DNA of 62,894 bases, counting the filler. It is 9 parts of 9 records of this genome, joined end to end, with 100 filler letters (N's around TTAATTAATTAA, not from the genome) between each part and the next. Parts side by side here need not be neighbours in the genome. Positions count along the whole stretch, not along the records: positions 27,784 to 35,108 come from SRR20825010_5683; 8 more parts are not named here. One strand, given 5' to 3'. A program made the translations under genes and the position numbers. Of this stretch, positions 1,923 through 35,108 are shown piece after piece. The notes beneath the pieces were generated by a model, which saw nothing but the letters and a program-made list of their open reading frames with translations, searched no databases and had not been told where the DNA came from. Positions within the stretch are counted from its first letter, which is position 1. Each line of letters starts with the position of its first letter.

Positions 1923-2657
1923 CTAGACTTGGTCGAGCAAGGCACGCATGCTACGAACAGCTTCATCCAGACCGGTGATCGCAGCGCGGGCAATAATGCT
2001 GTGGCCAATATTCAGCTCGTTGATGCCCGGGATTTCCGCAATCGGCAAAGTATTGTGGTAATGCAGCCCATGGCCAGCATTGACCACCAACCCCTGCTCC
2101 AGTGCCAACGCCACGCCAGCACGAATGCGCGCCAGCTCCTTCTGCTGTTCGTCCACCGTGTCTGCGTCCGCGTATCCACCGGTATGAATTTCGATTGCCG
2201 GGGCGCCACATTCACGGGCAGCTACAATCTGCGCTTCATCCGCATCAATAAACAGCGACACTTCGATGCCCGCTTGCCCTAGCCGCTGACAGCACTGAGC
2301 AATCCAGGCCTTGTTGCCCGCCACATCCAGGCCACCTTCGGTGGTCAGCTCCTCACGTTTTTCCGGTACCAGGCAGCAATGCGGTGGTTTAATTCGACAG
2401 GCAATGCCTACCATCTCTTCAGTGGCTGCCATTTCCAGATTCATGCGGGTTTGCAGCGTCTGCGCCAGCAGTTCCACATCCCGGTCATTGATATGCCGAC
2501 GGTCTTCGCGCAGGTGCACGGTAATGCCATCCGCACCGGCCTGCTCTGCGACCAGCGCGGCCTGTACCGGCTCGGGGTAGCGGGTGCCACGGGCCTGGCG
2601 AAGAGTGGCGATATGATCAATGTTGACGCCCAGAAGGACGCGGGAAGAATTCGACAT
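1923..2657 (-). CDS. pdxJ: Pyridoxine 5'-phosphate synthase
   Basis: [32 protein letters not shown] motifs; downstream of recO. Confidence 0.97.
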
Positions 2658-2670
2658 GTTCAAAACCCGG

Positions 2671-2816
2671 TTGAAAGTTCAAAGTTCAAAGTTGAAAACC
2701 CCGACCAACAGGAACCAACAGCGCCGTGTTTCGCTGCCGCAGGCAATTCCCCGGTATGGCAATGCCGTATCTGTCAGCCTTCCTCGCGCTTTCAACTTTG
2801 AACTTTAAACTTGTAA
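2671..2816. repeat. Intergenic element with inverted arms of tandem 7-mers
   Basis: TTGAAAG TTCAAAG TTCAAAG TTGAAAA (2671-2698) and CTTTCAA CTTTGAA CTTTAAA CTTGTAA (2789-2816). Confidence 0.8.
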
Positions 2817-2817
2817 C

Positions 2818-3495
2818 TCATTTCTCCCGAAACAGCTCCCGGCTTTTCAATGGCCGGTTGCCCAGATGCTGCGCCAGTAAATGTCGACATAGACTCAATG
2901 CTGCCCTGCGCGAAGCGGGATGCCAATCACCCTGGGCAATGGCCAGCAAGTCTGCGCCAGCATAACCGGCCCCGGTTTCTGTCTTCGCCAAACCTTGCTC
3001 AGGATTTAACTGGTATAACGCCTCGGGGTCCAGCCCGTGCCCATTAACATCCTGATCCAGAGCAATGCCGTAACCGATTTGCTCCAGCACCGCCAATTCG
3101 AATTGCCGCAGCGTGATGTCGAACGGTGTCGGCGTCTGCAAGTCGGACAGAGCCTGTTCGTATAAAGGCCAAACCGACGGATTCGGATCGTCCCGGTGCA
3201 GCAGTCGCGTCAGTAGCTCGTTCAGGTAAAACCCGCAGTACAACGCCTTGCCGGTCAGCATAAGGCGATTGCCGCGCGGCTCGCACGCGCGCAGGGAATA
3301 CATCTCGCCGGAGGGCTTTAACTCTACCCACAGGGGCGTAAACGGTGCCAGCAACGGGTCTTTGCGGCCACCGCGCACCACCGCACCAATGCGGCCTAGC
3401 GCAGGAAGAAACAGGTCTACCGTCAGGCTGGTATTACGAAAAGGCCGCCGGTGAATCAGCCAGGCGGCTTGCAGTGACGTCTCAGCGCGGCTCAT
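2818..3495 (-). CDS. recO: DNA repair protein RecO
   Basis: AWLIHRRPFRNTSL, LYCGFYLNELL, LKSRELF; era-recO-pdxJ synteny; ATG at 3495. Confidence 0.95.
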   Translation of the reverse strand: MSRAETSLQAAWLIHRRPFRNTSLTVDLFLPALGRIGAVVRGGRKDPLLAPFTPLWVELKPSGEMYSLRACEPRGNRLMLTGKALYCGFYLNELLTRLLHRDDPNPSVWPLYEQALSDLQTPTPFDITLRQFELAVLEQIGYGIALDQDVNGHGLDPEALYQLNPEQGLAKTETGAGYAGADLLAIAQGDWHPASRRAALSLCRHLLAQHLGNRPLKSRELFREK

Positions 3496-4414
3496 CGTAG
3501 CCGAGCGAGCGCAGCGCACGGGCGTCATCGGACCACCCCGCCTTGATCTTCACCCACAGGTTGAGCATCACCTTGCGCTCGATCAGGCGTTCAATATCTT
3601 CACGGGCCTGAATGCCGATCTGCTTGATGCGCTCGCCCTTGTCACCAATAAGGATTTTTTTCTGGCCGCGGCGCTCCACCAGAATGGCGGCGGAAATTTC
3701 GGTGACGCGGGGGCCATCTTCCCACATCTCCACTTCCACACTCACCTGATGGGGTACTTCCTGCCCGAGCTGACGAACCACTTTTTCGCGAATGATTTCC
3801 GCTACCATAAAACGCAAGCTGCGGTCAGTAAGCTGATCTTCCTCGTACCAGAACTCACCTTCCGGCAAACGCTGAACCAGTGCTTTTTCAAGCTCCACCA
3901 GGTTTTGTTCGCGCAATGCAGAGACTGGAATCACCGCATCGAAGGGGTAACGTTCACTCAAAGTCTGGATATGCGGCAACAAGGCCGCCTTGTCATCCAC
4001 GTTATCGACCTTGTTAATGATCAACAGTACCGGCACCTGATCCTTTTCCGGCAACAGGGACAGCACGTGCTCGTCCGCCGGCGTCCACTTCATGGCATCC
4101 ACCATCATGCAGATCACGTCCACACCGAACAGGGTGGACACTGCGGCTTCATTCATGGCGCGGTTCAGCGCCTTTTCCTGACCGGTATGAATACCCGGCG
4201 TATCGGCAAAAATAATCTGATAGTTGTCCCGGCTGAGAATTCCGTGGATGCGGTGACGGGTGGTCTGCGGCTTGCGTGAAGTAATGCTGACTTTCTGGCC
4301 GATCAAGTGGTTCATCAACGTGGATTTGCCCACGTTGGGACGCCCGACGATGGACACCATGCCGCAACGGGTCGCGTGGGAGTCATCGGGTTGGGACGTT
4401 GGGATATCAGTCAT
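3482..4414 (-). CDS. era: GTPase Era
   Basis: GRPNVGKSTL, DTPG, NKVD, KH domain; ATG at 4414 overlaps the rnc stop. Confidence 0.97.
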   Translation of the reverse strand: MTDIPTSQPDDSHATRCGMVSIVGRPNVGKSTLMNHLIGQKVSITSRKPQTTRHRIHGILSRDNYQIIFADTPGIHTGQEKALNRAMNEAAVSTLFGVDVICMMVDAMKWTPADEHVLSLLPEKDQVPVLLIINKVDNVDDKAALLPHIQTLSERYPFDAVIPVSALREQNLVELEKALVQRLPEGEFWYEEDQLTDRSLRFMVAEIIREKVVRQLGQEVPHQVSVEVEMWEDGPRVTEISAAILVERRGQKKILIGDKGERIKQIGIQAREDIERLIERKVMLNLWVKIKAGWSDDARALRSLGYDEPR

Positions 4415-5093
4415 ACTGTTGCTCCAGCCATTCAAGCGCCAGGCTTGCGGCCTCCTGCTCGGCCTTGCGGCGGCTCGCGCCCTGGGCGATAAATATCTGC
4501 TGCACCTGATCCAGTGAGCACTGCACATCGAAGGTCTGTTTCGGAGCCAGCCCTTCCACTTGGGTCACTTCATAGGTCGGCAATTCAAATTTGCGCGCCT
4601 GCAGCCATTCCTGCAAACGGGTTTTGGCATCTTTCTGGGCACTTTGCGGGGAGATGGCGTCAAGGCGTGGCGCAAACCAGCAAAGCACAACCTCACGGCA
4701 ACGGGACTCACCACCGTCCAGCAACATGGCACCAATAATCGACTCCAGCGCATCCGCAAGAATGGAATCACGGCGGAAGCCGCCGCTTTTCAACTCACCG
4801 CCACCCAGCACCAGGTATTCCCCCAGGCCCAGCTCCCGGGCTACCAGAGCCAGCGTTTGGCCACGCACCAAAGACGCCCGCATTCGGGTCAACTGACCTT
4901 CGGCTGCTTCCGGGAACTGTTCAAACAGGGCAACGGAAATAATTTGCCCGAGCTGGGCATCACCGAGAAACTCCAGGCGTTCGTAATTACGGTGGCGGCT
5001 GACACTACGGTGTGTCAGCGCCAACTCGAGAAGGGAAATATCCTGGAACTGATAGCCCAGGCGGGCCATCAGCCGGTTAAGATCACCGTTCAC
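4407..5093 (-). CDS. rnc: Ribonuclease III
   Basis: NYERLEFLGDA signature, dsRBD KTRLQEWLQ. Confidence 0.97.
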   Translation of the reverse strand: MNGDLNRLMARLGYQFQDISLLELALTHRSVSRHRNYERLEFLGDAQLGQIISVALFEQFPEAAEGQLTRMRASLVRGQTLALVARELGLGEYLVLGGGELKSGGFRRDSILADALESIIGAMLLDGGESRCREVVLCWFAPRLDAISPQSAQKDAKTRLQEWLQARKFELPTYEVTQVEGLAPKQTFDVQCSLDQVQQIFIAQGASRRKAEQEAASLALEWLEQQYD

Positions 5094-5473
5094 TGGCGAA
5101 CGTCTTTCTTGAACTCGTCTTTGAAGGTCATCACGATGCTCACGTTGTAGAACATCGGTTCGCGCACTTCATAGTCTGTGGACACGGTCAGCACGCCGGC
5201 TTCCTTGGCGATAGCCAGGTCATCGACACGAATTACATCGACCTGGTTAATGGTGAAACGCTTGTCTATCCCTGCGCGAATTTCACTTGGGGACATGAGT
5301 GCTGTTTTGCTGTCCTGCAGCACTGAGCGGATGGTTGTCGAAATCGTGTTGTGCTCCATATAGGCCGGAACCATACGGAATGCTGCCGTCCCCAGAATAG
5401 CCACAACGATCAGCACGACTGCCCAGCTGATCAGTGACATCCCACGTTGCCGTGAGGGCGTTGTTGTCATCAT
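5090..5473 (-). CDS. DUF4845-type membrane protein with pilin-like N-terminus
   Basis: RQRGMSL plus hydrophobic helix; usual position between lepB and rnc. Confidence 0.8.
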   Translation of the reverse strand: MMTTTPSRQRGMSLISWAVVLIVVAILGTAAFRMVPAYMEHNTISTTIRSVLQDSKTALMSPSEIRAGIDKRFTINQVDVIRVDDLAIAKEAGVLTVSTDYEVREPMFYNVSIVMTFKDEFKKDVRQ

Positions 5474-6438: not shown

Positions 6439-8238
6439 TTAATCATCCACCTTCAGCACGGCCAGGAAGGCCTCTTGGGGAATTTCCACATTCCCCACCT
6501 GCTTCATGCGCTTCTTGCCTTCTTTCTGCTTCTGCAGCAGTTTTTTCTTACGCGATACGTCACCGCCATAGCATTTCGCGGTCACATTCTTGCGCAGGGC
6601 CTTTACCGTCTGGCGGGCAATAATCTTGCTGCCAATGGCCGCCTGAATGGCCACATCAAACATCTGGCGCGGCACCAGCTCTTTCATTTTTTCACACAGG
6701 GCACGGCCCCGGTAGGCAGACTGATCCAGGTGGCAGATCATCGCCAGCGCATCCACCTTATCGCCATTGATCAGCACATCGACGCGCACCAGCTTGGTGG
6801 CTTCGAATCGCTCGAAGGCATAATCCATGGAAGCAAAGCCCCGGCTCACTGACTTGATACGATCGAAGAAATCCAGCACCACTTCCGCCATGGGAATATC
6901 GTAGGTCAGGGCAACCTGTTTACCCAGATACTGCATATTGATCTGCGAACCACGCCGCTCCACGCAAAGAGTGATCACATTACCCACATATTCCTGCGGC
7001 ACCAGGATATTGACCCGCGCAATCGGCTCACGGAACTCTTCGATCTTACCGCCTTCCGGCAGTTTGGACGGGTTATCCACGTGCAGGATGTCGCCGGAGA
7101 CCAGCGCCAGTTCGTACACCACCGTAGGTGCCGTGGTAATCAAATCCAGGTCGTATTCGCGTTCCAGCCGTTCCTGGATGATTTCCATGTGCAACATACC
7201 CAGGAAACCCACCCTGAAACCAAAACCCAACGCATCTGACGTCTCCGGCTCATAGAACAGGGAGGCATCATTCAGCGTCAGCTTGGCCAGCGCATCACGG
7301 AAATCTTCATAATCATCGGCACTCACCGGGAACATGCCCGCGTAGACCTGAGGCTTGACGTTCTTGAAGCCCGGCAAAGCTGGCACATTGGGGGTTTTCG
7401 CCAGGGTCAGGGTGTCACCCACCGGCGCCCCGTGAATATCCTTGATGCTGCCGCTCACCCAGCCCACTTCGCCGGCTTCCAGCAATTTGGTCTCGGTGCG
7501 TTTGGGAGTAAAGATGCCAAGGCTGTCGACCACGTGGGTCTGCCCGGTGGATTTCACCAGAATCTTGTCACCTTTTTTCAGACAGCCTTCTTTCACCCGC
7601 ACCAGCGAGATCACACCCATGTAGTTGTCGAACCAGGAATCGATGATCAGGGCCTGCAGATCTGATTCGCGCTCACCTTCCGGGGAGGGGATACGCTCGA
7701 CCAACTGTTCCAGCAGATCATCCACACCCACGCCGGTCTTCGCCGACACCCGGCAGGCATCATGAGCATCCAGACCAATAATTTCCTCGATCTCGTTGAT
7801 CACCATTTCCGGCTCGGCCTGGGGCAGGTCGATCTTGTTCAGGACCGGCAGCACTTCCAGGTCCTGTTCGATGGCGGTGTAGCAATTAGCCACGGACTGG
7901 GCTTCCACACCCTGGGCAGCGTCCACCACCAGCAGCGCCCCTTCACAGGCCGACAGGGAGCGCGAGACCTCGTAGGAGAAATCCACGTGCCCCGGCGTAT
8001 CAATAAAATTCAACTGGTAGGTTTCGCCATCACGGGCCTTGTAGTACAAGGTCACACTTTGGGCCTTGATGGTAATGCCCCTTTCCCGCTCAAGCTCCAT
8101 GGAATCCAGCACCTGAGACTTCAGCTCACGGTCACTAAGGCCGCCGCAAACCTGGATAAAGCGGTCTGCCAACGTGGATTTGCCATGGTCGATATGGGCA
8201 ATGATGGAAAAGTTGCGAATATTCTTGATGTCAGTCAT
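6439..8238 (-). CDS. lepA: Elongation factor 4 (LepA)
   Basis: [21 protein letters not shown]-terminal [17 protein letters not shown] at 8238. Confidence 0.98.
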
Positions 8239-27783: not shown

Positions 27784-30700
27784 GTACGTAACGGTAAATC
27801 TGTACGTATACCTGGATAGAACACACCTTTCCTGGTAGGGTGCATGTTATACGTTACACGCCATGCATAAACTGAAATTAGTAAAGTGCTTACATAATAC
27901 ACTGTTTATGCTGAGTAGTATTACCCATGTCTATACCTGTAACCCCCACGTGTACATGGCGTGTTGTAAACACACAAAAAAAAAGTTATAGTTTATTACG
28001 ATTGTTTTGTTTGTGTAACATACTATGTGTGAGGGGTCATTCCCAGGAAAGGTGTGTTGCGTATGACGTCTATAAAAAGTATAAAACTTAAGTATACGTG
28101 CATACACCTTTCCTATATTAATATGTAGTATACTACGTAACACAAAAAATCAAAAAACGATATTACGTAATCAACAGGACGTCGCTACGGGGATATCCAC
28201 CTACTATTTTTTGTACGAGCTGAGCATAGTTGCTCGGGGAGGATATGACATGCAGGTTTACACCTTTCCAGGTAATGTACATATATATACAATACTTACA
28301 ATTCTCAAAAAAGTGAAATTCCACAGGTTAGCAGATGCTGTACCGTGTCGTAACGTATTGACTTATATGTTGTAACAGTATAAGGCGCAAAAGTTTACAG
28401 TTTAAACTACTTATATGTACCGTAACAATACTCTTTACCTGTTACGTGTGTTTCCACATGCTTGCCGTACATACAGGTTATGTATGTATTGTGGGATTGA
28501 TTGATGTTTGAAATCAATATAGTACAATGTCTTACAGGAAAGGTGTATCCGCGGGGGTGTATGTTGACATCAAACGTAATAAAAACGCAGTGGCGTTGTA
28601 CATAACTGTACAAGTGTATACTACGTAATGCGGCATACAAGTTATAACCCTGTTAAACAGCATGCACAATATAAATACATAATGTGCCACCTGTGTGTAC
28701 GTAAGTATTACTCCTATGACACTACATACATAGAAGTAAGTGTAGTTGCTGTCACATATATTTGAAATTTTTTTTGTATGTTTTGTTATAAATCTTTTAC
28801 TATCCGTTTTACAGGAAAGGTGTACACAGTTCTGTGTTGTTATACTTGCTGTACACGTTATGCATTAATACCATGGTTGAAGTGTCATCCTACATCACAT
28901 AACCAAAACACAGTAAACAACACATGAACATACTTAGTATTCGTCTTGTGTACTGTTACTGTTTTTGTTTGGTGTTGTTCATGTAATTACTGGATGATGT
29001 CTACACGGAAAGGTGTAGTTTACATTACACGTGTATAGTATGTTAAGCGCTGTTATCCGGGTGAGATACTTTCGGCCATACGGTCGACCTCTACTGTGGA
29101 GATGCTATACTACTGATACACCAGTACCAGGTACGCTCCGTATGCGGTACATGTAAACACGCGTATACCTACAGACGTGTACAGGGAAAGTACCTACCCG
29201 TAGCAATCGTGTGTTTAGTTACGAAATTTATGTTGTATTATTGCATATCATATCCGGATAGATTATCTCAGGAAAGGTGTAACCCCAATGGAACGCGGGG
29301 AATAACCTCCCTAAAAAAGAGAGAGCGTGCAATACGTACTACGGTATATGTTGTATGCGGTATCCGCAAGTATTACGTACGCCGTGTGTGTGTATATATG
29401 TACATGTACACCTTTCCGATAAGTATACAATGTTAATCATACTACAACAAATTTCAACAAACACGCAGTGCCAGTATACATGGTATACATAACAGACCCC
29501 GTGGTGATAATAATCAGGGATGTTCTATAATACACGACAAATAATAGACTTACATTTTACGTAACATACAGTGTATTATAACCATACTATGTAAGTTCGT
29601 CTTCCCGGGAAACAACGACCACCGTATGCATACGTGTGTGTAAACGTGTACCACGCAAAAGAATCAACTATGTATTGCATATTTTATGTTGTACGGTAAA
29701 CGACTAATCTAATTATTGTATGCACCTTTCCATTGCTGGCGTAACATGGATGTACGTACGTCAACACCCACACGAAACCTACAGTACATGGAAGTGTACA
29801 CGGTATCGTACATACAACCCTATTGTTGTATGGTATTGTACTGTCCTTCAAAAAAAAATGTAATGTATCTGAAAAAATCTACGCGGACAAATGTAATCAT
29901 ACGTAACGTACACCTTTCCTGGGGGAACGGATTCACGATGAATTACAAAAAACAAAAAATGTAAACGCACGTAATAACCCTCTATGCTTTTTTACGCATA
30001 TACGTGGTGATGGTAAGGTTAAATTTATTAAATACGGAAATACATGTAATACCGTAGTGTGTGTAATGCACGCGTACCGCACACGTCCGTAATGCAACAC
30101 ACACTTTTCGTGTAGTGTTTATTATTGTTTACATGCATCCCGTATTACGCATAAACAAAATTATCCCCATATTTTTTATTTTTTGTGTGTTTGGTGTAAC
30201 GTACACTATCCGTACAATTATCCGGAAAGGTGCATTAATATGTATTATACATACATTATGTTATAAGTTCGCGTACTTGTAATTCATACTTGCTATGTGT
30301 TGAACCCCGTTGATGTCACGGAGTGTAAACCATCCCCGCGCACGATGCAAATTTGAGCAATAACAACTTACTATACGTAGGTGCACACCTTTCCTACGTG
30401 TACATGCACGTAAGCTCTACAAAAAAACAACACCAACTACGTCTTTTTATAAATGTTGAGTCTTATCGGTACCGTGCGTAGTATAGCCTTGGTTTAACTA
30501 CGTATTAACTTAATCGATATAACACGAGCATACATTACCGGTGCACATCATCCAGTTTGAGTGTATTGCTTTTGTTTACTATTTTTTGTGCACACTGCGT
30601 ATTACATAGGAAAGGTGTATTGTGGCTGTTACGCGTAATGATACTACTTGCACTTACACTGTTGTATTAATACGACAATACGTACGCCGTAGTATTACCA

Positions 30701-33700
30701 GGGCCATGTGTGTGTAGGAAACGTTACATGCATTGTAAGTTTGGCTTTGTATTTATTGATTACAGTAACGTTGACCGGGACGCACTTACCTGGAAAGGTG
30801 TACGCAGATATTCCCATAGAAGTACGTCCTATAAGTTAAGTAACATACGCAGGGTATAGGGCATTAAATACTCTGTAAAATTATAAATGGTTACATAAAC
30901 GCGGTACGATATACCGTGCTGACTATCGCGTGACCAGCATATGTAATAGCATATTATACTTTTTCTTTTTTTTTGTTTGTTACAAATAATGGTGTCGTTG
31001 CAATTGTCGGAAAGGTGTAATGTCTGTAACGTGTATTGGTATGTTTTACTGTTGCTTGCGCATCTCGCGTAATAGTATCTGAGTCTTTACACGTACATCA
31101 GTAGGTCTTAACGCTCATAATAGACACTACGTGGTATGAGTTGGGTATATATCCCGGGTGTAAATATATTATTTCCGTATACTTATATACATTAAATCAT
31201 TTGGGTTTATATATATATACGTATACACATCATACGTGTACACACCTTTCCAACTTATATACATATACCGTATCCCGTAAAACAAACATAAACAACGTAA
31301 ATTTATATTGAGTACACACACCGTTTTTGTAGTGTTATGGGATTCCATAAATGCATACGTATACCCACACAAAAAATATAAAAAGTAGGGGTCCCATTTG
31401 GTGCAGACACAGTGTGGTGTAAACGTGTGCATTTTTCATAGTATGGGTATTCCGTTTCCGTTGCCACACCATTAATATATTGTATGTAGTGTAACACCTT
31501 TCCGGTAGTTTACAGTTATTAATGTTATCAAAAACATAAAAACATTGGAACAACACGTTATTAACTGTGTATAGCGTAAAATGTTATACACGTTGTTTGT
31601 GATATGGGTGATGCGTTACAAACGTACATATACGTAGATAAACTGTATGCACTAAACTCGTAGTAACAACGGAATACGCATTGATACTGAAAGCTGATAT
31701 GTGTAGTTCCTTTTTTCATAGAGTATACACTATGTAGATATACTACGCGTGTTACGTAGGATTACGTTAATTCTTCCATACCAGTAACTGCATATTGGGG
31801 TGGTATTTTAGTTTGGGATGTACAGTAATGTACAACGCACTACTTACTTAGGAAAGGTGTGGCGTGCATGCTGCATGCTATGTAGTTTTGTTATCATTTT
31901 GTTTTGTTGTGTCCGTTATTGTATATACCGACTTTATAGGAAAGGTGTAATTTATATTGTACGTACCAAGGCTACCACAACTCCGTGACTACGTGTAATA
32001 CACCCGGTAAAATATAACCTCTACACACAGGTACTGCGTAAAACAAGTCCCTGGGTATATATTAACACGGTACTTTACGCTACGTGTGTGGTGAAGATGT
32101 ACATCTGTTTGTTATTAACTTTTCGTGTTTTGTTGCTTTTATGTATATACTATAATGTCTGCAAACCGTAAGGAAAGGTGTCGTGCTACACCGGGGTTAC
32201 TGGACATGACCTTATTCTACTTATACACGTACAAGATACGATCACTGTATGCACCGTCTCAAAAAAAAACGGGATGTACGACTACCACGCATATGCGTGT
32301 ACACGATATGTGTGTGTACCACTGTACATGCCGCCAGGTATATATATATATACGAGCTTACGCTGATATTATTGTTGGATACGTGTATCGTATGCAGTAC
32401 ATAACGGAACTTATTTTTTTTAGAAAGACATACCGACAAGCAATGTACGCGATGTAGCTGACATAGCATGTACTACGTCCCCGAAGTGTTACCCTACTTG
32501 GTTTGTTGTTGCTTGTTATTTGTTTATGGCTTACATCACGTATAGGGAAAGGTGTTATGGATGTAAATCCATTTACAGGATAACATATTTATGTTATGCG
32601 TGGGTACACCTTTCCTGAGGAAATACACACCATCAAATAAACGTAGCAATCACACAAAAAGACGAGCGTATGTACACACCATGTTGAACGTATGTCACGT
32701 GGATAAGTATATATCACACGCAACTAATTCAGGGAACATACTACGTATAACGAAGTTTATTAATTGTTACTATTGACAACCGTGTACACACCTTTCCGTA
32801 TGTAAGATCACAATGCATTACAGGGCAACAACAAAACAAAACTAGTTCACATAGTATGTTGCGTTATTATCCGTGTGTAACAAAAACCGGGTACAATGAA
32901 AGTACACACACATGCAGTTTCCTCCATTTTGCAGATGTGGGTATGCGTTGCCTGTATACGCGTATTCCGGAAAGGTGTACACGTATACTAGTTCCACGTA
33001 TCACCGCCGTACAACGTGCACACCTTTCCAGAGCAGAGTTACATCCACCACGATATATGTATCCTTCAAAAAAACAAGATACATCCTCGTATGTGTGTAT
33101 AGTCACTGTGTATTGTGTGCTTGCCTGTTACGTGTATAGTGGTATGTTAGCTATTGCATAACCCGGGCATTACTGTGGGAATAATATAACACCCTACACA
33201 TTTTGGTGTTGGTATATGTAACTGTTGTCATATACGTAATTGTGGTGTATACTATTCTACCACACAGGGTTGTATACATATGAACACCTTTCCATACCAG
33301 TCATACATGTACGTAGTAAGGGGTCTTCCACAACATAAATATTACACACCTGGTGGGAGGTATTATACGTTGTGTAAGTGCACATCCGTCTATAGTATTA
33401 CTACTGTAATAGCAGTTACACCTTTCCTGTACACGTGTATTACACTCATATCGGGTGCAACAAACAAAAAACATTTCACGCATAGTAGGTATATATCATA
33501 GCAATATGCTATACGTAGGACGTAATATGCTTAACCGTATGTTTTATTATTTGTGTACACGTTATGTATTTGTCATCTGTTACTACGGAAAGGTGTACAC
33601 GTTGTGGAAGCTATTACTTCACGATTACAATAAAATGACATACACTATACACGTAGGACACTGCATGCACCTTTCCTGGGTGTGGTATGTACGCCACGTG

Positions 33701-35108
33701 TAGACTACGCAAACATAAAGTTATGTATGATTACGTGTATGTTTATGTAAAGCATATAACGCTATAAAAAAATGTATATGTTTTTGTAGTAGCTAAATTT
33801 ACATACATTCCCATTACGTATTTAACATAACATTGCATGCGTGGTATACATAGTGCACAGCGTTCACACCTTTCCGGTATAAGCCTGTATATATGTATAG
33901 TCCAAAATCATGACAAACCACCTAGGCAAAGTTACGCACCCGGTACAATACAGGCGAACGTACTTTACATGTTATAACGTATACGTTTTGAAATGTCCCA
34001 TATCCTACGCGGGTTGGGTGGTTAGTGTATATTAGTGTACACTCCCCCCGGCCTATCGGCATCGTGGGATGTAATTATTCTACGCGGGATTATACACCTT
34101 TCCGGGTTTAACGTAATTCTAGTAAAATAGAACAACAAAAACAACAAACTACCCGCATGTACCTGTCTACATATTTTGTAAGGTACCGTTATACTTATCA
34201 CGATACTATACGGTTACAATAAATTTACGTAATACGTGTGCATATAAAATAAAAGATATTAAGCCACGTAATAACTATGTGTTAATGAGTACTATGTATG
34301 CACACGATACGTACATTCTGCATTATACAGAGTAAAACTACACCTTTCCTATATAACGCTATTATCAGCTGGGTTACGCAAAACATGGGATTACTAACGT
34401 AGCATACCTATATATCATGTGGAATGTGTAAATACTGCACACATTTAAAAGTCGTAGTTACTACGTTGGTTTACACGGAGTGTACTTCACACCTTTCCGA
34501 GAAGTGTTAAATAACGATATTAACTATCGCAAAACGAAAATTAAGCAAACTCATGTTATGCAAGTAATGTACTGGTTACGGGGTATATAGTACCCGTATC
34601 CTTCCATAAGACATAACACATACACGTAAATCATGTGTAACATGCACACCTTTCCGTATGGTTGAATACATTACCGTTGTTGCAAGACAACAACAACAAC
34701 ATAAAACTACGGGTATATCACACCCCTATGTAACATACATCCTAAGTTAAATATCATGTCTGTCGTGGGTAACACGCGGTATACATACAAGAACTACATC
34801 CGGGGCTTACATGTCATATAGAAATATATATTTTTTTTTATTTCTGTGTGTACTGCTACCATATGATATACCCTTACTGGAAAGGTGTTCGGGTTTAATC
34901 CCGGTGTAATATACGCATGACATTGTTATACGTAGTCCCCCTGGTAGTAACATGTGTACTGCTCGGAACGCAGTATAACAATGCGTGGTTACGTAAAATA
35001 TCGGGATTACGTGTAACGTGTAAAGTAATGTACGTAATATTGTATAATACAGTAAACACTTATATTACAACTCTTACGACGTAGTAGTGTACATAACCGT
35101 ACGTACAC
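27784..35108. repeat. Gene-less AT-rich contig with 36 dispersed directional units (RCACCTTTCC + about 25-35 nt + A/C-rich tract); putative small-RNA gene array
   Basis: RCACCTTTCC on + at 27823, 28104, 28260, 29408, 29722, 29910, 30385, 31242, 31494, 32606, 32788, 33020, 33284, 33418, 33667, 33866, 34094, 34340, 34489, 34646. GGAAAGGTGY at 28046, 28537, 28814, 29007, 29271, 30224, 30609, 30792, 31009, 31851, 31939, 32172, 32546, 32969, 33587, 34879. No ORF over 110 aa. Confidence refers to the repeat structure, not the function. Confidence 0.93.

Follow-up and report, generated by a model that had tools for sequence, protein, structure and literature searches.

Why should a contig of 7,325 bp that holds no genes carry 36 copies of the same 10-nucleotide sequence? 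The contig lies at positions 27784–35108 of the window, by which we mean the whole stretch of 62,894 nucleotides analyzed here, made of nine contigs joined by N spacers. The sequence RCACCTTTCC occurs 20 times on its plus strand and 16 times on its minus strand, and all copies fall within 27823–34888, in this contig only. Each copy is followed at a fixed distance by an A/C-rich tract that differs from unit to unit. We consider it moderately probable that these units form a guide-RNA (gRNA) gene array of a marine euglenozoan, in which the motif would be a promoter or positioning signal.

A two-part unit repeated in a contig without genes

The repetition is highly nonrandom. Among 100 dinucleotide-preserving shuffles of the window, the mean count was 0.22 motifs and the maximum was 3, and none of the 100 reached 36. 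The first position is A in 33 copies and G in the other three (29722, 30224, and 33667), and the distance between copies ranges from 51 to 374 bp. A search that allowed one mismatch found no further copies inside the contig. Thus, the 9-mer CACCTTTCC is invariant, and the contig holds no decayed copies of it. In the rest of the window, the same search returned two extra matches (18100 and 40545), both on other contigs, where 3.65 would be expected by chance. The first motif begins 40 nt from the contig start, and the last is 229 nt from the contig end.

Alignment of the 36 copies on the motif reveals the A/C-rich tract downstream of every one. At offsets +40 to +49 from the motif start, A makes up 0.60 of the letters, C 0.26, G 0.04, and T 0.10, and at +50 to +59 the values are A 0.55, C 0.17, G 0.10, and T 0.18, against a background A/C/G/T composition of 0.31/0.19/0.19/0.31. 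Position −1 is T in 21 of the 36, and positions +10 to +19 are poor in C. Upstream of the motif and past about +70, the 36 copies show no departure from background composition. For 411 usable units from this contig and the relatives described below, the median distance from motif end to tract start is 27 nt (interquartile range 23.5–32), and the median tract length is 20 nt (interquartile range 13–27). The units are directional, with the tract always on the downstream side of the motif.

Conservation sets the same two elements apart. Positions 2900–5450 of the contig, in its own coordinates, are collinear in inverted order with positions 2400–5050 of a diverged relative, L099. Ten units have a motif that aligns in both sequences, whereas one motif is lost in L099 and one region is absent from it. 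Identity is 0.98 within the motif (offsets 0 to 9, 1% gaps), 0.60 at +10 to +19 (3% gaps), 0.51 at +20 to +29 (1% gaps), 0.70 at +30 to +39 (3% gaps), 0.93 at +40 to +49 (3% gaps), and 0.81 at +50 to +59 (13% gaps). All other bins from −60 to +139 show identities of 0.47–0.69 with mostly 5–21% gaps. This profile indicates purifying selection on the motif and on each unit's own tract, with a spacer that is free in sequence and held in length. Such retention of the tract unit by unit, together with its distance from the motif, is the behavior expected of an information-bearing product.

The ORF listing yielded no protein-coding genes in the contig or its relatives. The contig has 55 open reading frames (ORFs) of at least 40 amino acids (aa), the longest of which is 110 aa, and its longest stop-to-stop frame is 136 aa. 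In the relatives, the longest stop-to-stop frame under table 11 is at most 184 aa. Alternative genetic code 6 produces long frames of several hundred codons, in several frames on both strands. We reject these as genes and regard them as an artifact because the depletion of GA/TC makes TGA scarce. Comparisons by blastn of the contig with itself and with its family found no repeated unit between its motifs.

A preliminary description of this DNA had singled out the contig, and most of what it claimed holds. Its motif count, strand split, A/G split, and spacing were all exact on recount, its statement that there are no credible ORFs agrees with the listing (110 aa for the longest of 55), and the blastn comparisons bear out its view that the sequence between copies is unique. 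It had taken the motif for a selected signal present once per unit, and this part of its reading stands, given that the motif is strand-specific relative to the tract and 98% kept where the flanks are 50–65% identical. The promoter or positioning role fits the fixed distance of ~27 nt from motif to conserved tract. It was also right to set aside three kinds of repeat. The units do not form a satellite or tandem repeat, as they are not diverged copies of one longer sequence but have unique bodies that share similarity at the level of the tract only. A CRISPR array needs direct repeats of 23–50 bp in one orientation with near-constant spacers, whereas here a 10-mer lies on both strands at spacings of 51–374 bp. 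Nor is the array an integron, given a signal that is strand-specific relative to the tract, 98% conserved, and attached to unique unit bodies. The A/C tract and the foreignness of the contig to the bacterial bin had been missed.

This foreignness is evident in several properties. The guanine-cytosine (GC) content of the contig is 0.376, compared with 0.41–0.68 for the other eight contigs of the window. Its dinucleotide odds are 0.48 for GA/TC, 0.62 for AG/CT, 1.64 for AC/GT, 1.34 for TA, and 1.27 for CG, a signature seen in none of the other eight, all of which have long ORFs. Of the window's words, 32% are found in G001, the nearest genome compared, which has one motif copy in 3.6 Mb. Because the motif count in G001, the composition, and the dinucleotide signature all differ, the contig is foreign to the bacterial bin. 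It is not part of the bacterium but foreign DNA in a bacterial assembly. The window assembly as a whole resembles a mixed bin, with nine contigs of GC 0.38–0.68 whose dinucleotide signatures are unlike one another, and the last contig (56818–62894, GC 0.41) is likewise unlike the rest.

The individual units are located as follows, with the ranges in brackets giving the whole unit, its motif, and its tract. Outside the part that is collinear with L099, the plus strand carries unit 1 (27823–27863; 27823–27832; 27856–27863), whose A/C tract is weak, and units 3 (28104–28158; 28104–28113; 28139–28158) and 4 (28260–28312; 28260–28269; 28306–28312), the latter with a short tract. Further along this strand are units 9 (29408–29464; 29408–29417; 29444–29464), 10 (29722–29783; 29722–29731, with G at position 1; 29762–29783), 11 (29910–29959; 29910–29919; 29945–29959), and 13 (30385–30437; 30385–30394; 30419–30437). 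Toward the far end of the contig, the plus strand has units 27 (33284–33350; 33284–33293; 33328–33350), 28 (33418–33473; 33418–33427; 33458–33473), 30 (33667–33719; 33667–33676, with G at position 1; 33710–33719), 31 (33866–33922; 33866–33875; 33902–33922), 32 (34094–34154; 34094–34103; 34124–34154), 33 (34340–34385; 34340–34349; 34379–34385, a short tract), 34 (34489–34550; 34489–34498; 34530–34550), and 35 (34646–34707; 34646–34655; 34683–34707). The minus strand in these same regions carries units 2 (28002–28055; 28046–28055; 28002–28016), 5 (28476–28546; 28537–28546; 28476–28510), 6 (28768–28823; 28814–28823; 28768–28787), 7 (28946–29016; 29007–29016; 28946–28979), 12 (30172–30233; 30224–30233, with G at position 1; 30172–30197), 14 (30555–30618; 30609–30618; 30555–30590), 29 (33540–33596; 33587–33596; 33540–33556), and 36 (34831–34888; 34879–34888; 34831–34851). 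Unit 8 (29209–29280; 29271–29280; 29209–29220), also on the minus strand, is atypical in that its tract lies 50 nt from the motif.

Within the part shared with L099, the minus-strand unit 15 (30739–30801; 30792–30801; 30739–30758) is the one whose motif is lost in the homologue. A stretch of 27 nt over the tract of unit 16 (30960–31018, minus; 31009–31018; 30960–30981) is identical in L099, and the tract of unit 17 (31242–31296, plus; 31242–31251; 31279–31296) is kept there. L099 has orthologous units for units 18 (31494–31544, plus; 31494–31503; 31529–31544), 19 (31795–31860, minus; 31851–31860; 31795–31821), 20 (31881–31948, minus; 31939–31948; 31881–31922), 22 (32498–32555, minus; 32546–32555; 32498–32529), 24 (32788–32842, plus; 32788–32797; 32826–32842), 25 (32936–32978, minus; 32969–32978; 32936–32950), and 26 (33020–33077, plus; 33020–33029; 33067–33077). 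Unit 23 (32606–32660, plus; 32606–32615; 32621–32660) has a long tract and an orthologue that differs mostly by transitions, and the region of unit 21 (32106–32181, minus; 32172–32181; 32106–32144) is the one absent from L099.

Related molecules, their ends, and their abundance

A scan of metagenomes for two motifs 215–245 nt apart returned at least 116 stretches. Among the matches listed, at least 17 marine metagenome loci are relatives of the contig, with the motif on both strands at 1–6 copies per kb, a GC content of 0.35–0.39, and an A-rich tract at +40 to +60. Thirteen of these are scaffolds of one TARA sample, and four come from other records (L052, L053, L084, and L126). Together with the window contig, the 17 loci make a family set of 102,400 bp that contains the 411 usable units. 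Its pooled dinucleotide signature is strong and agrees with that of the contig (GA/TC 0.50, AG/CT 0.65, AC/GT 1.55, TA 1.31, and CG 1.24), and the sequence is rich in alternating purine–pyrimidine steps and short palindromes (ACGT, GTAC, and TATA). The motif appears as ACACCTTTCC 372 times and as GCACCTTTCC 40 times in the 102 kb. Variants are few and located mainly at positions 1–2, the commonest being ATACCTTTCC (18 copies), TCACCTTTCC (10), and CCACCTTTCC (8). Units number 223 on the plus strand and 189 on the minus strand, and neighbors have the same orientation in 200 cases and opposite orientations in 194, which reveals no pattern. The median spacing is 208.5 bp, and the density is about 5 units per kb, with 25–55 units per contig.

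A second lineage was found when all fetched loci were screened by dinucleotide signature. The GC content of its two members, L064 (1–7719) and L081 (1–8263), is 0.26. In each, the 8-mer core ACCTTTCC occurs 24 times, in most cases with TA directly after it, and the A/C tract lies as far downstream as in the family. Each has terminal inverted repeats of ~0.6 kb with 82–85% identity, which are common to both molecules at 84–89%, and their interiors are unique. In both, the outermost unit at either end faces inward, and similar A/T-rich sequence then follows.

The family shows the same arrangement, as blastn reveals that its contigs have little in common except their ends. Terminal repeats are common to L031, L045, L054, L089, L091, L098, L099, and L108, and the interiors are unique. 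L091 (6,006 bp) ends in inverted arms of ~134 nt that are 77% complementary and made of 10-bp units, L126 has its own inverted arms at 1–158 and 7505–7663, and L054, L099, L045, L089, and L108 carry related repeats at one end each. A 79-bp tandem repeat in L108 (4135–4729, 7.7 copies) and L089 (1–275) lies outside the ~10-bp repeats of the CCGGGAAA type, and therefore at least two repeat layers exist at the molecule ends. In the relatives L091 and L108, Tandem Repeats Finder detected sizeable arrays at the ends only. The topology is probably linear, although a circle with a palindromic conserved region may account for the same ends, and assemblies cannot discriminate between these two forms.

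Six sequencing runs from four studies match the contig. Three runs of one study, with three organism labels, contain all sampled words, but this study is possibly the source of the window itself and thus does not count as independent support. In run X1, the contig sits whole inside a 13,242-bp contig with a word depth of 235, which bears out the earlier proposal that the array continues past both contig ends. Seven other X1 contigs of 3.9–11.1 kb match only around the motifs and have word depths of 280–1494, all of these being raw word depths that are not relative to nuclear or bacterial contigs. By our own arithmetic, length multiplied by depth for the eight X1 contigs amounts to about 45 Mb of the 211 Mb read, if the seven are array molecules as we infer. 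A run from another study, labeled as a sediment metagenome, has three contigs that cover the whole stretch, are ~95% identical to it, and are syntenic. The 382 differences are transition-biased (A>G 68, G>A 65, C>T 66, T>C 72, transversions 111), and none of the 40 listed falls in a motif. Two further studies provide short identical pieces only. Because the contig is present whole in X1 and has a transition-biased relative that has diverged by ~5%, the sequence is real, natural, and evolving. The observation itself is real, highly nonrandom, and biologically organized.

None of the runs listed for the contig is recorded as RNA. Short identical pieces in run X4, which we guess to be RNA, were considered as evidence of transcription but do not show it. 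An X4 contig ends at window positions 34383–34389 with a loose 16-letter tail, which we take to be part of a SMART template-switching or polymerase chain reaction (PCR) oligonucleotide whose 3′ end is ACATGGG. Because the genomic letters that follow, ACATGGG, equal this presumed 3′ end, the boundary looks like oligonucleotide mispriming and not like the end of an RNA.

Searches of other collections gave no further members. In one genome per prokaryote species, 23 stretches were found, all with five or fewer motif copies, which is the chance level. Three pattern scans of IMG/VR returned 4, 1, and 0 stretches, none of them a family member, and blastn against phage and plasmid collections gave no match. 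A comparison of 88.7 kb of relatives with Rfam gave no match at gathering score, and three weak subthreshold matches in the contig look like chance. A match to the Rfam potassium channel RNA editing signal at 31815–31929 (32 bits against a gathering score of 51, E 0.0028) was taken as chance and rejected. The preliminary description had named an artifact and a known repeat family as outcomes that would undo its reading. Instead, the contig was found whole in a public run with relatives in several metagenome collections, and no Rfam family was matched at gathering score.

Some metagenome contigs contain the motif in other settings. L082, L076, L058, L096, L080, L060, and others are short and carry many motifs in one orientation with no A/C tract. 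Their appearance is that of unrelated tandem satellites in which the 10-mer arose by chance. An IMG/VR record labeled as a giant-virus metagenome-assembled genome (L142, 1–9533, GC 0.28) has eight motifs on one strand and no tract, and probably represents a local repeat outside the family.

A possible guide-RNA array and its rivals

If the units are gRNA genes, the contig would be part of a high-copy, gene-less molecule of about 6–13 kb, probably linear, with inverted terminal tandem repeats. It would originate from a eukaryotic organelle, most likely as kinetoplast-type mitochondrial DNA of a marine bodonid-like kinetoplastid, and would have been swept as an organellar contig into the bacterial assembly. 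Each of the 36 units would be an autonomous mini-gene. The invariant 8- to 10-mer (R)CACCTTTCC may position a mitochondrial RNA polymerase for a start about 25–30 nt downstream, across a spacer of ~27 nt constrained in length and free in sequence. The putative product would be the unit-specific A/C-rich stretch of about 20–30 nt, a short guide RNA. Such a guide is predicted to pair, mostly by Watson–Crick pairs, with a U/G-rich edited mitochondrial messenger RNA (mRNA) and to direct U insertion, wherein its A residues would template the inserted U residues, its C residues would pair with encoded G, and G:U pairs would be few. Transcription, start site, target, and taxon are all matters that we infer.

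The properties of kinetoplastid gRNA molecules recur in these sequences, including a motif at a fixed upstream distance (median 27 nt over 411 units, with 1–3% gaps), common termini combined with differing variable regions, and the lack of protein-coding genes. Furthermore, the gRNA-bearing kinetoplast DNA of Trypanoplasma borreli has the same architecture (PMC9679448), and this weakens the claim of the preliminary description that the contig represents an undescribed system. It is probably not an undescribed system but a new form of guide-RNA gene organization.

Several points weigh against the gRNA interpretation. Complementarity to an edited mitochondrial mRNA, the defining property of a gRNA, stays predicted. 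The molecules known to bear gRNAs are defined in part by conserved sequence block 3 (CSB-3), the kinetoplastid replication motif, and a search for this 12-mer with zero or one mismatch did not find it in the 102-kb family or in L064 and L081, although the terminal repeats are only partly assembled. The molecules carry no ribosomal RNA or protein gene that would tie them to a taxon. In the 102 kb, RYAGGCTTT, the motif of T. borreli, is present only twice, and thus the signal here is not the T. borreli sequence. The tracts have little G (0.04–0.10) and low complexity, their median of 20 nt is below published gRNA lengths, and their C positions show no 3-nt periodicity. The sequence beyond the tract is unconserved relative to L099, and there is no clean mapping onto a published description.

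Tests for a cascade of overlapping guides were uninformative on this matter. Tract 16-mers common to units of different loci form 35 pairs, against 3–8.5 in block shuffles, and 20-mers form 10 pairs, against 0–0.1, where the pairs include some orthologues and one trivial overlap. Tract k-mers common to units exceed block shuffles about twofold at all offsets, a result that word structure or overlapping guides explain equally. A suffix–prefix test for guide chains, which was badly designed and included the flanks, produced 0 edges, against 0–11 in shuffles. Predicted RNA structure in 200 of the 411 units has a mean z of −0.4 to −0.7 relative to mononucleotide shuffles, which is not meaningful in a composition so rich in palindromes. 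Given that CSB-3 was sought without success and that no taxon is established, we say that the contig works like a kinetoplastid gRNA array, and not that it is proven to be one.

Perhaps the units produce short guide-like or antisense RNAs in some other lineage or process, an explanation we regard as unlikely but deserving of attention. The motif would still be a promoter for each unit, but the targets would not be mRNAs edited by U insertion and deletion. Examples include a diplonemid, an organelle of an unknown protist, or a high-copy nuclear extrachromosomal element analogous to clusters of PIWI-interacting RNAs (piRNAs). Templates that would direct U addition and module joining have been looked for in diplonemids. 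The anatomy and conservation of the units demand just a per-unit signal and a unit-specific short product, and the tie to kinetoplastids is missing in that neither the family nor L064 and L081 yielded CSB-3 and no marker gene is linked. Moreover, L064 and L081 retain the same 8-mer core and spacing in a very different composition (GC 0.26). However, the closest published architecture by far is kinetoplastid, and the very high depth fits organellar DNA better than chromosomal clusters. The A-rich, G-poor tract would also suit a guide for a U-rich edited mRNA with few G:U pairs, as the T. borreli report indicates (PMC9679448). Just as doubtful is the broader notion that these linear, gene-less replicons of high copy number form a class not seen before, in which every replicon carries dozens of short A/C-rich guides, each with its own 8- to 10-nt promoter, in a host outside the known U-indel editors or in the service of another RNA-guided process. 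If this were true, the occurrence of the same core and spacing at 26% and 38% GC would imply an old, widespread marine system.

We find it improbable that no RNA is made and that motif and tract together form a bipartite DNA site for proteins that, for example, replicate, segregate, or package a multicopy replicon. An invariant motif at a fixed distance from a second element is what such a site would offer, and transcription of the units is a prediction. A protein site should converge on one consensus, however, whereas the 411 tracts are nearly all different and yet show 93% identity between orthologues. In addition, known iteron or centromere-like arrays have far fewer sites per kb than the five counted here over both strands. 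Slimmer still is the chance that defective viral DNA, or a selfish, ORF-less satellite replicon of a virus or plasmid, became amplified in the samples. Terminal inverted repeats and a size of 6–13 kb are reminiscent of linear viral or plasmid genomes, and the same sequence appears under three organism labels of one study. Nevertheless, the three IMG/VR scans and the phage and plasmid collections produced no family member or match, the molecules have no credible ORF, and many of them combine common ends with differing interiors, as in gRNA classes. An assembly artifact or synthetic DNA might be suspected for a contaminant contig in a bin of mixed composition, but this reading is effectively refuted by the recovery of the whole sequence within a contig of a public run, by the syntenic relative of ~95% identity in another study, and by the diverged relatives in several metagenome collections.

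Comparison with known systems

The 21U-RNA (piRNA) clusters of Caenorhabditis elegans contain thousands of tiny units on both strands, with an upstream 8-nt motif at a fixed distance. If the units described here are gRNA genes, the array would resemble these clusters in that each unit is autonomous and its motif stands at a fixed distance from a unique short RNA. In contrast, those clusters are chromosomal nuclear loci of an animal with a different motif. The nematode-type motif lies ~40 nt upstream of a 21-nt RNA with U as its first nucleotide, and the loci are present at chromosomal copy number, whereas the molecules studied here are small, have terminal repeats and very high depth, and are predicted to give A/C-rich products. 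A nematode-type piRNA cluster was therefore rejected as an identity for the contig, whose conserved regions start with A or C (by construction), are A/C-rich, and are found at very high depth. The nonanucleotide promoters of yeast mitochondria are short, invariant, and used by a phage-type RNA polymerase, with one before each transcription unit. This repetition of a short invariant promoter per unit would be shared with the present array, but the yeast motif contains the start itself, is present in a few dozen copies per genome, and precedes ordinary genes.

Closer parallels exist among kinetoplastids. In the minicircle cassettes of Trypanosoma brucei, a semiconserved upstream element lies 30–32 nt from the gRNA start (PMC6868439), and in the present units the motif end and the tract are separated by a median of 27 nt. 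Each gRNA there has one autonomous unit, as is proposed here, on molecules that have no protein genes and fall into hundreds of classes (PMC6868439). Those molecules differ in being catenated circles of ~1 kb with 3–5 cassettes, each placed between paired 18-bp inverted repeats, with a conserved region that contains CSB-1 to CSB-3 and gRNAs of 40–50 nt that form many G:U pairs (PMC6868439). The units described here instead have one directional 10-mer apiece, and no second repeat closes them off. For Perkinsela, the sole common feature reported beside the putative gRNA genes is a tract rich in A or in A and C, and the mitochondrial DNA is very abundant, but the accessible text reports no conserved motif there (PMC4669381).

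The gRNA-bearing molecules of T. borreli provide the nearest match. These comprise 17 gRNA contigs of ~70 kb whose ends are opposing tandem "telomeric-like" repeats and whose interiors are unique, with 420 putative gRNA loci that lie on both strands without a placement pattern, an average of 23 high-confidence loci per contig, a motif RYAGGCTTT 20–40 bp upstream of each locus, and gRNAs with a median of 28 nt and 0.11 G:U pairs per base (PMC9679448). Like the ScaI-flanked gRNA molecules of that species, the molecules here are bounded on both sides by inverted tandem repeats and have no genes in their interiors, which are unique, whereas the ends are common to different molecules. Both systems place many short loci on both strands without a pattern, each behind a motif of about 9 nt that is 20–40 bp upstream in T. 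borreli, and the guides, which are short with few G:U pairs in that species, are predicted to be so here. However, the molecules here measure 6–13 kb and not ~70 kb, and they have about 5 units per kb (25–55 per contig), whereas in T. borreli each ~70-kb contig has 23 loci on average. In place of RYAGGCTTT, the motif here is (R)CACCTTTCC, and the terminal repeats have units of ~10 bp and ~79–100 bp, with CSB-3 not found in the assembled sequence. Complementarity to edited mRNA has been shown in T. borreli, whereas for the present units it is a prediction from DNA.

In the accessible literature on gRNA gene organization, we found no description of a ACCTTTCC array, and the matches listed in a text search for the 10- and 11-letter motif strings look, as judged by title, like primers or unrelated uses. 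A practical consequence is that the contig would be eukaryotic organellar contamination of a bacterial assembly, for which the motif would serve as an easy flag. The identity of the gRNA promoter is said to remain obscure (PMC6789859), and the more than 400 units that pair an invariant 8- to 10-mer with a product at a fixed distance would offer a clean candidate for this long-obscure mitochondrial element. The gRNA-bearing molecules tabulated in the accessible part of a 2026 review are minicircles of 0.7–2 kb, circles of 15–22 kb, and linear molecules of ~70 kb (PMC12936278). If our interpretation is correct, the array described here, from uncultured or unnamed marine lineages, would be the densest guide-RNA gene organization yet seen, with about 5 units per kb on molecules of 6–13 kb that are bounded by terminal inverted repeats.

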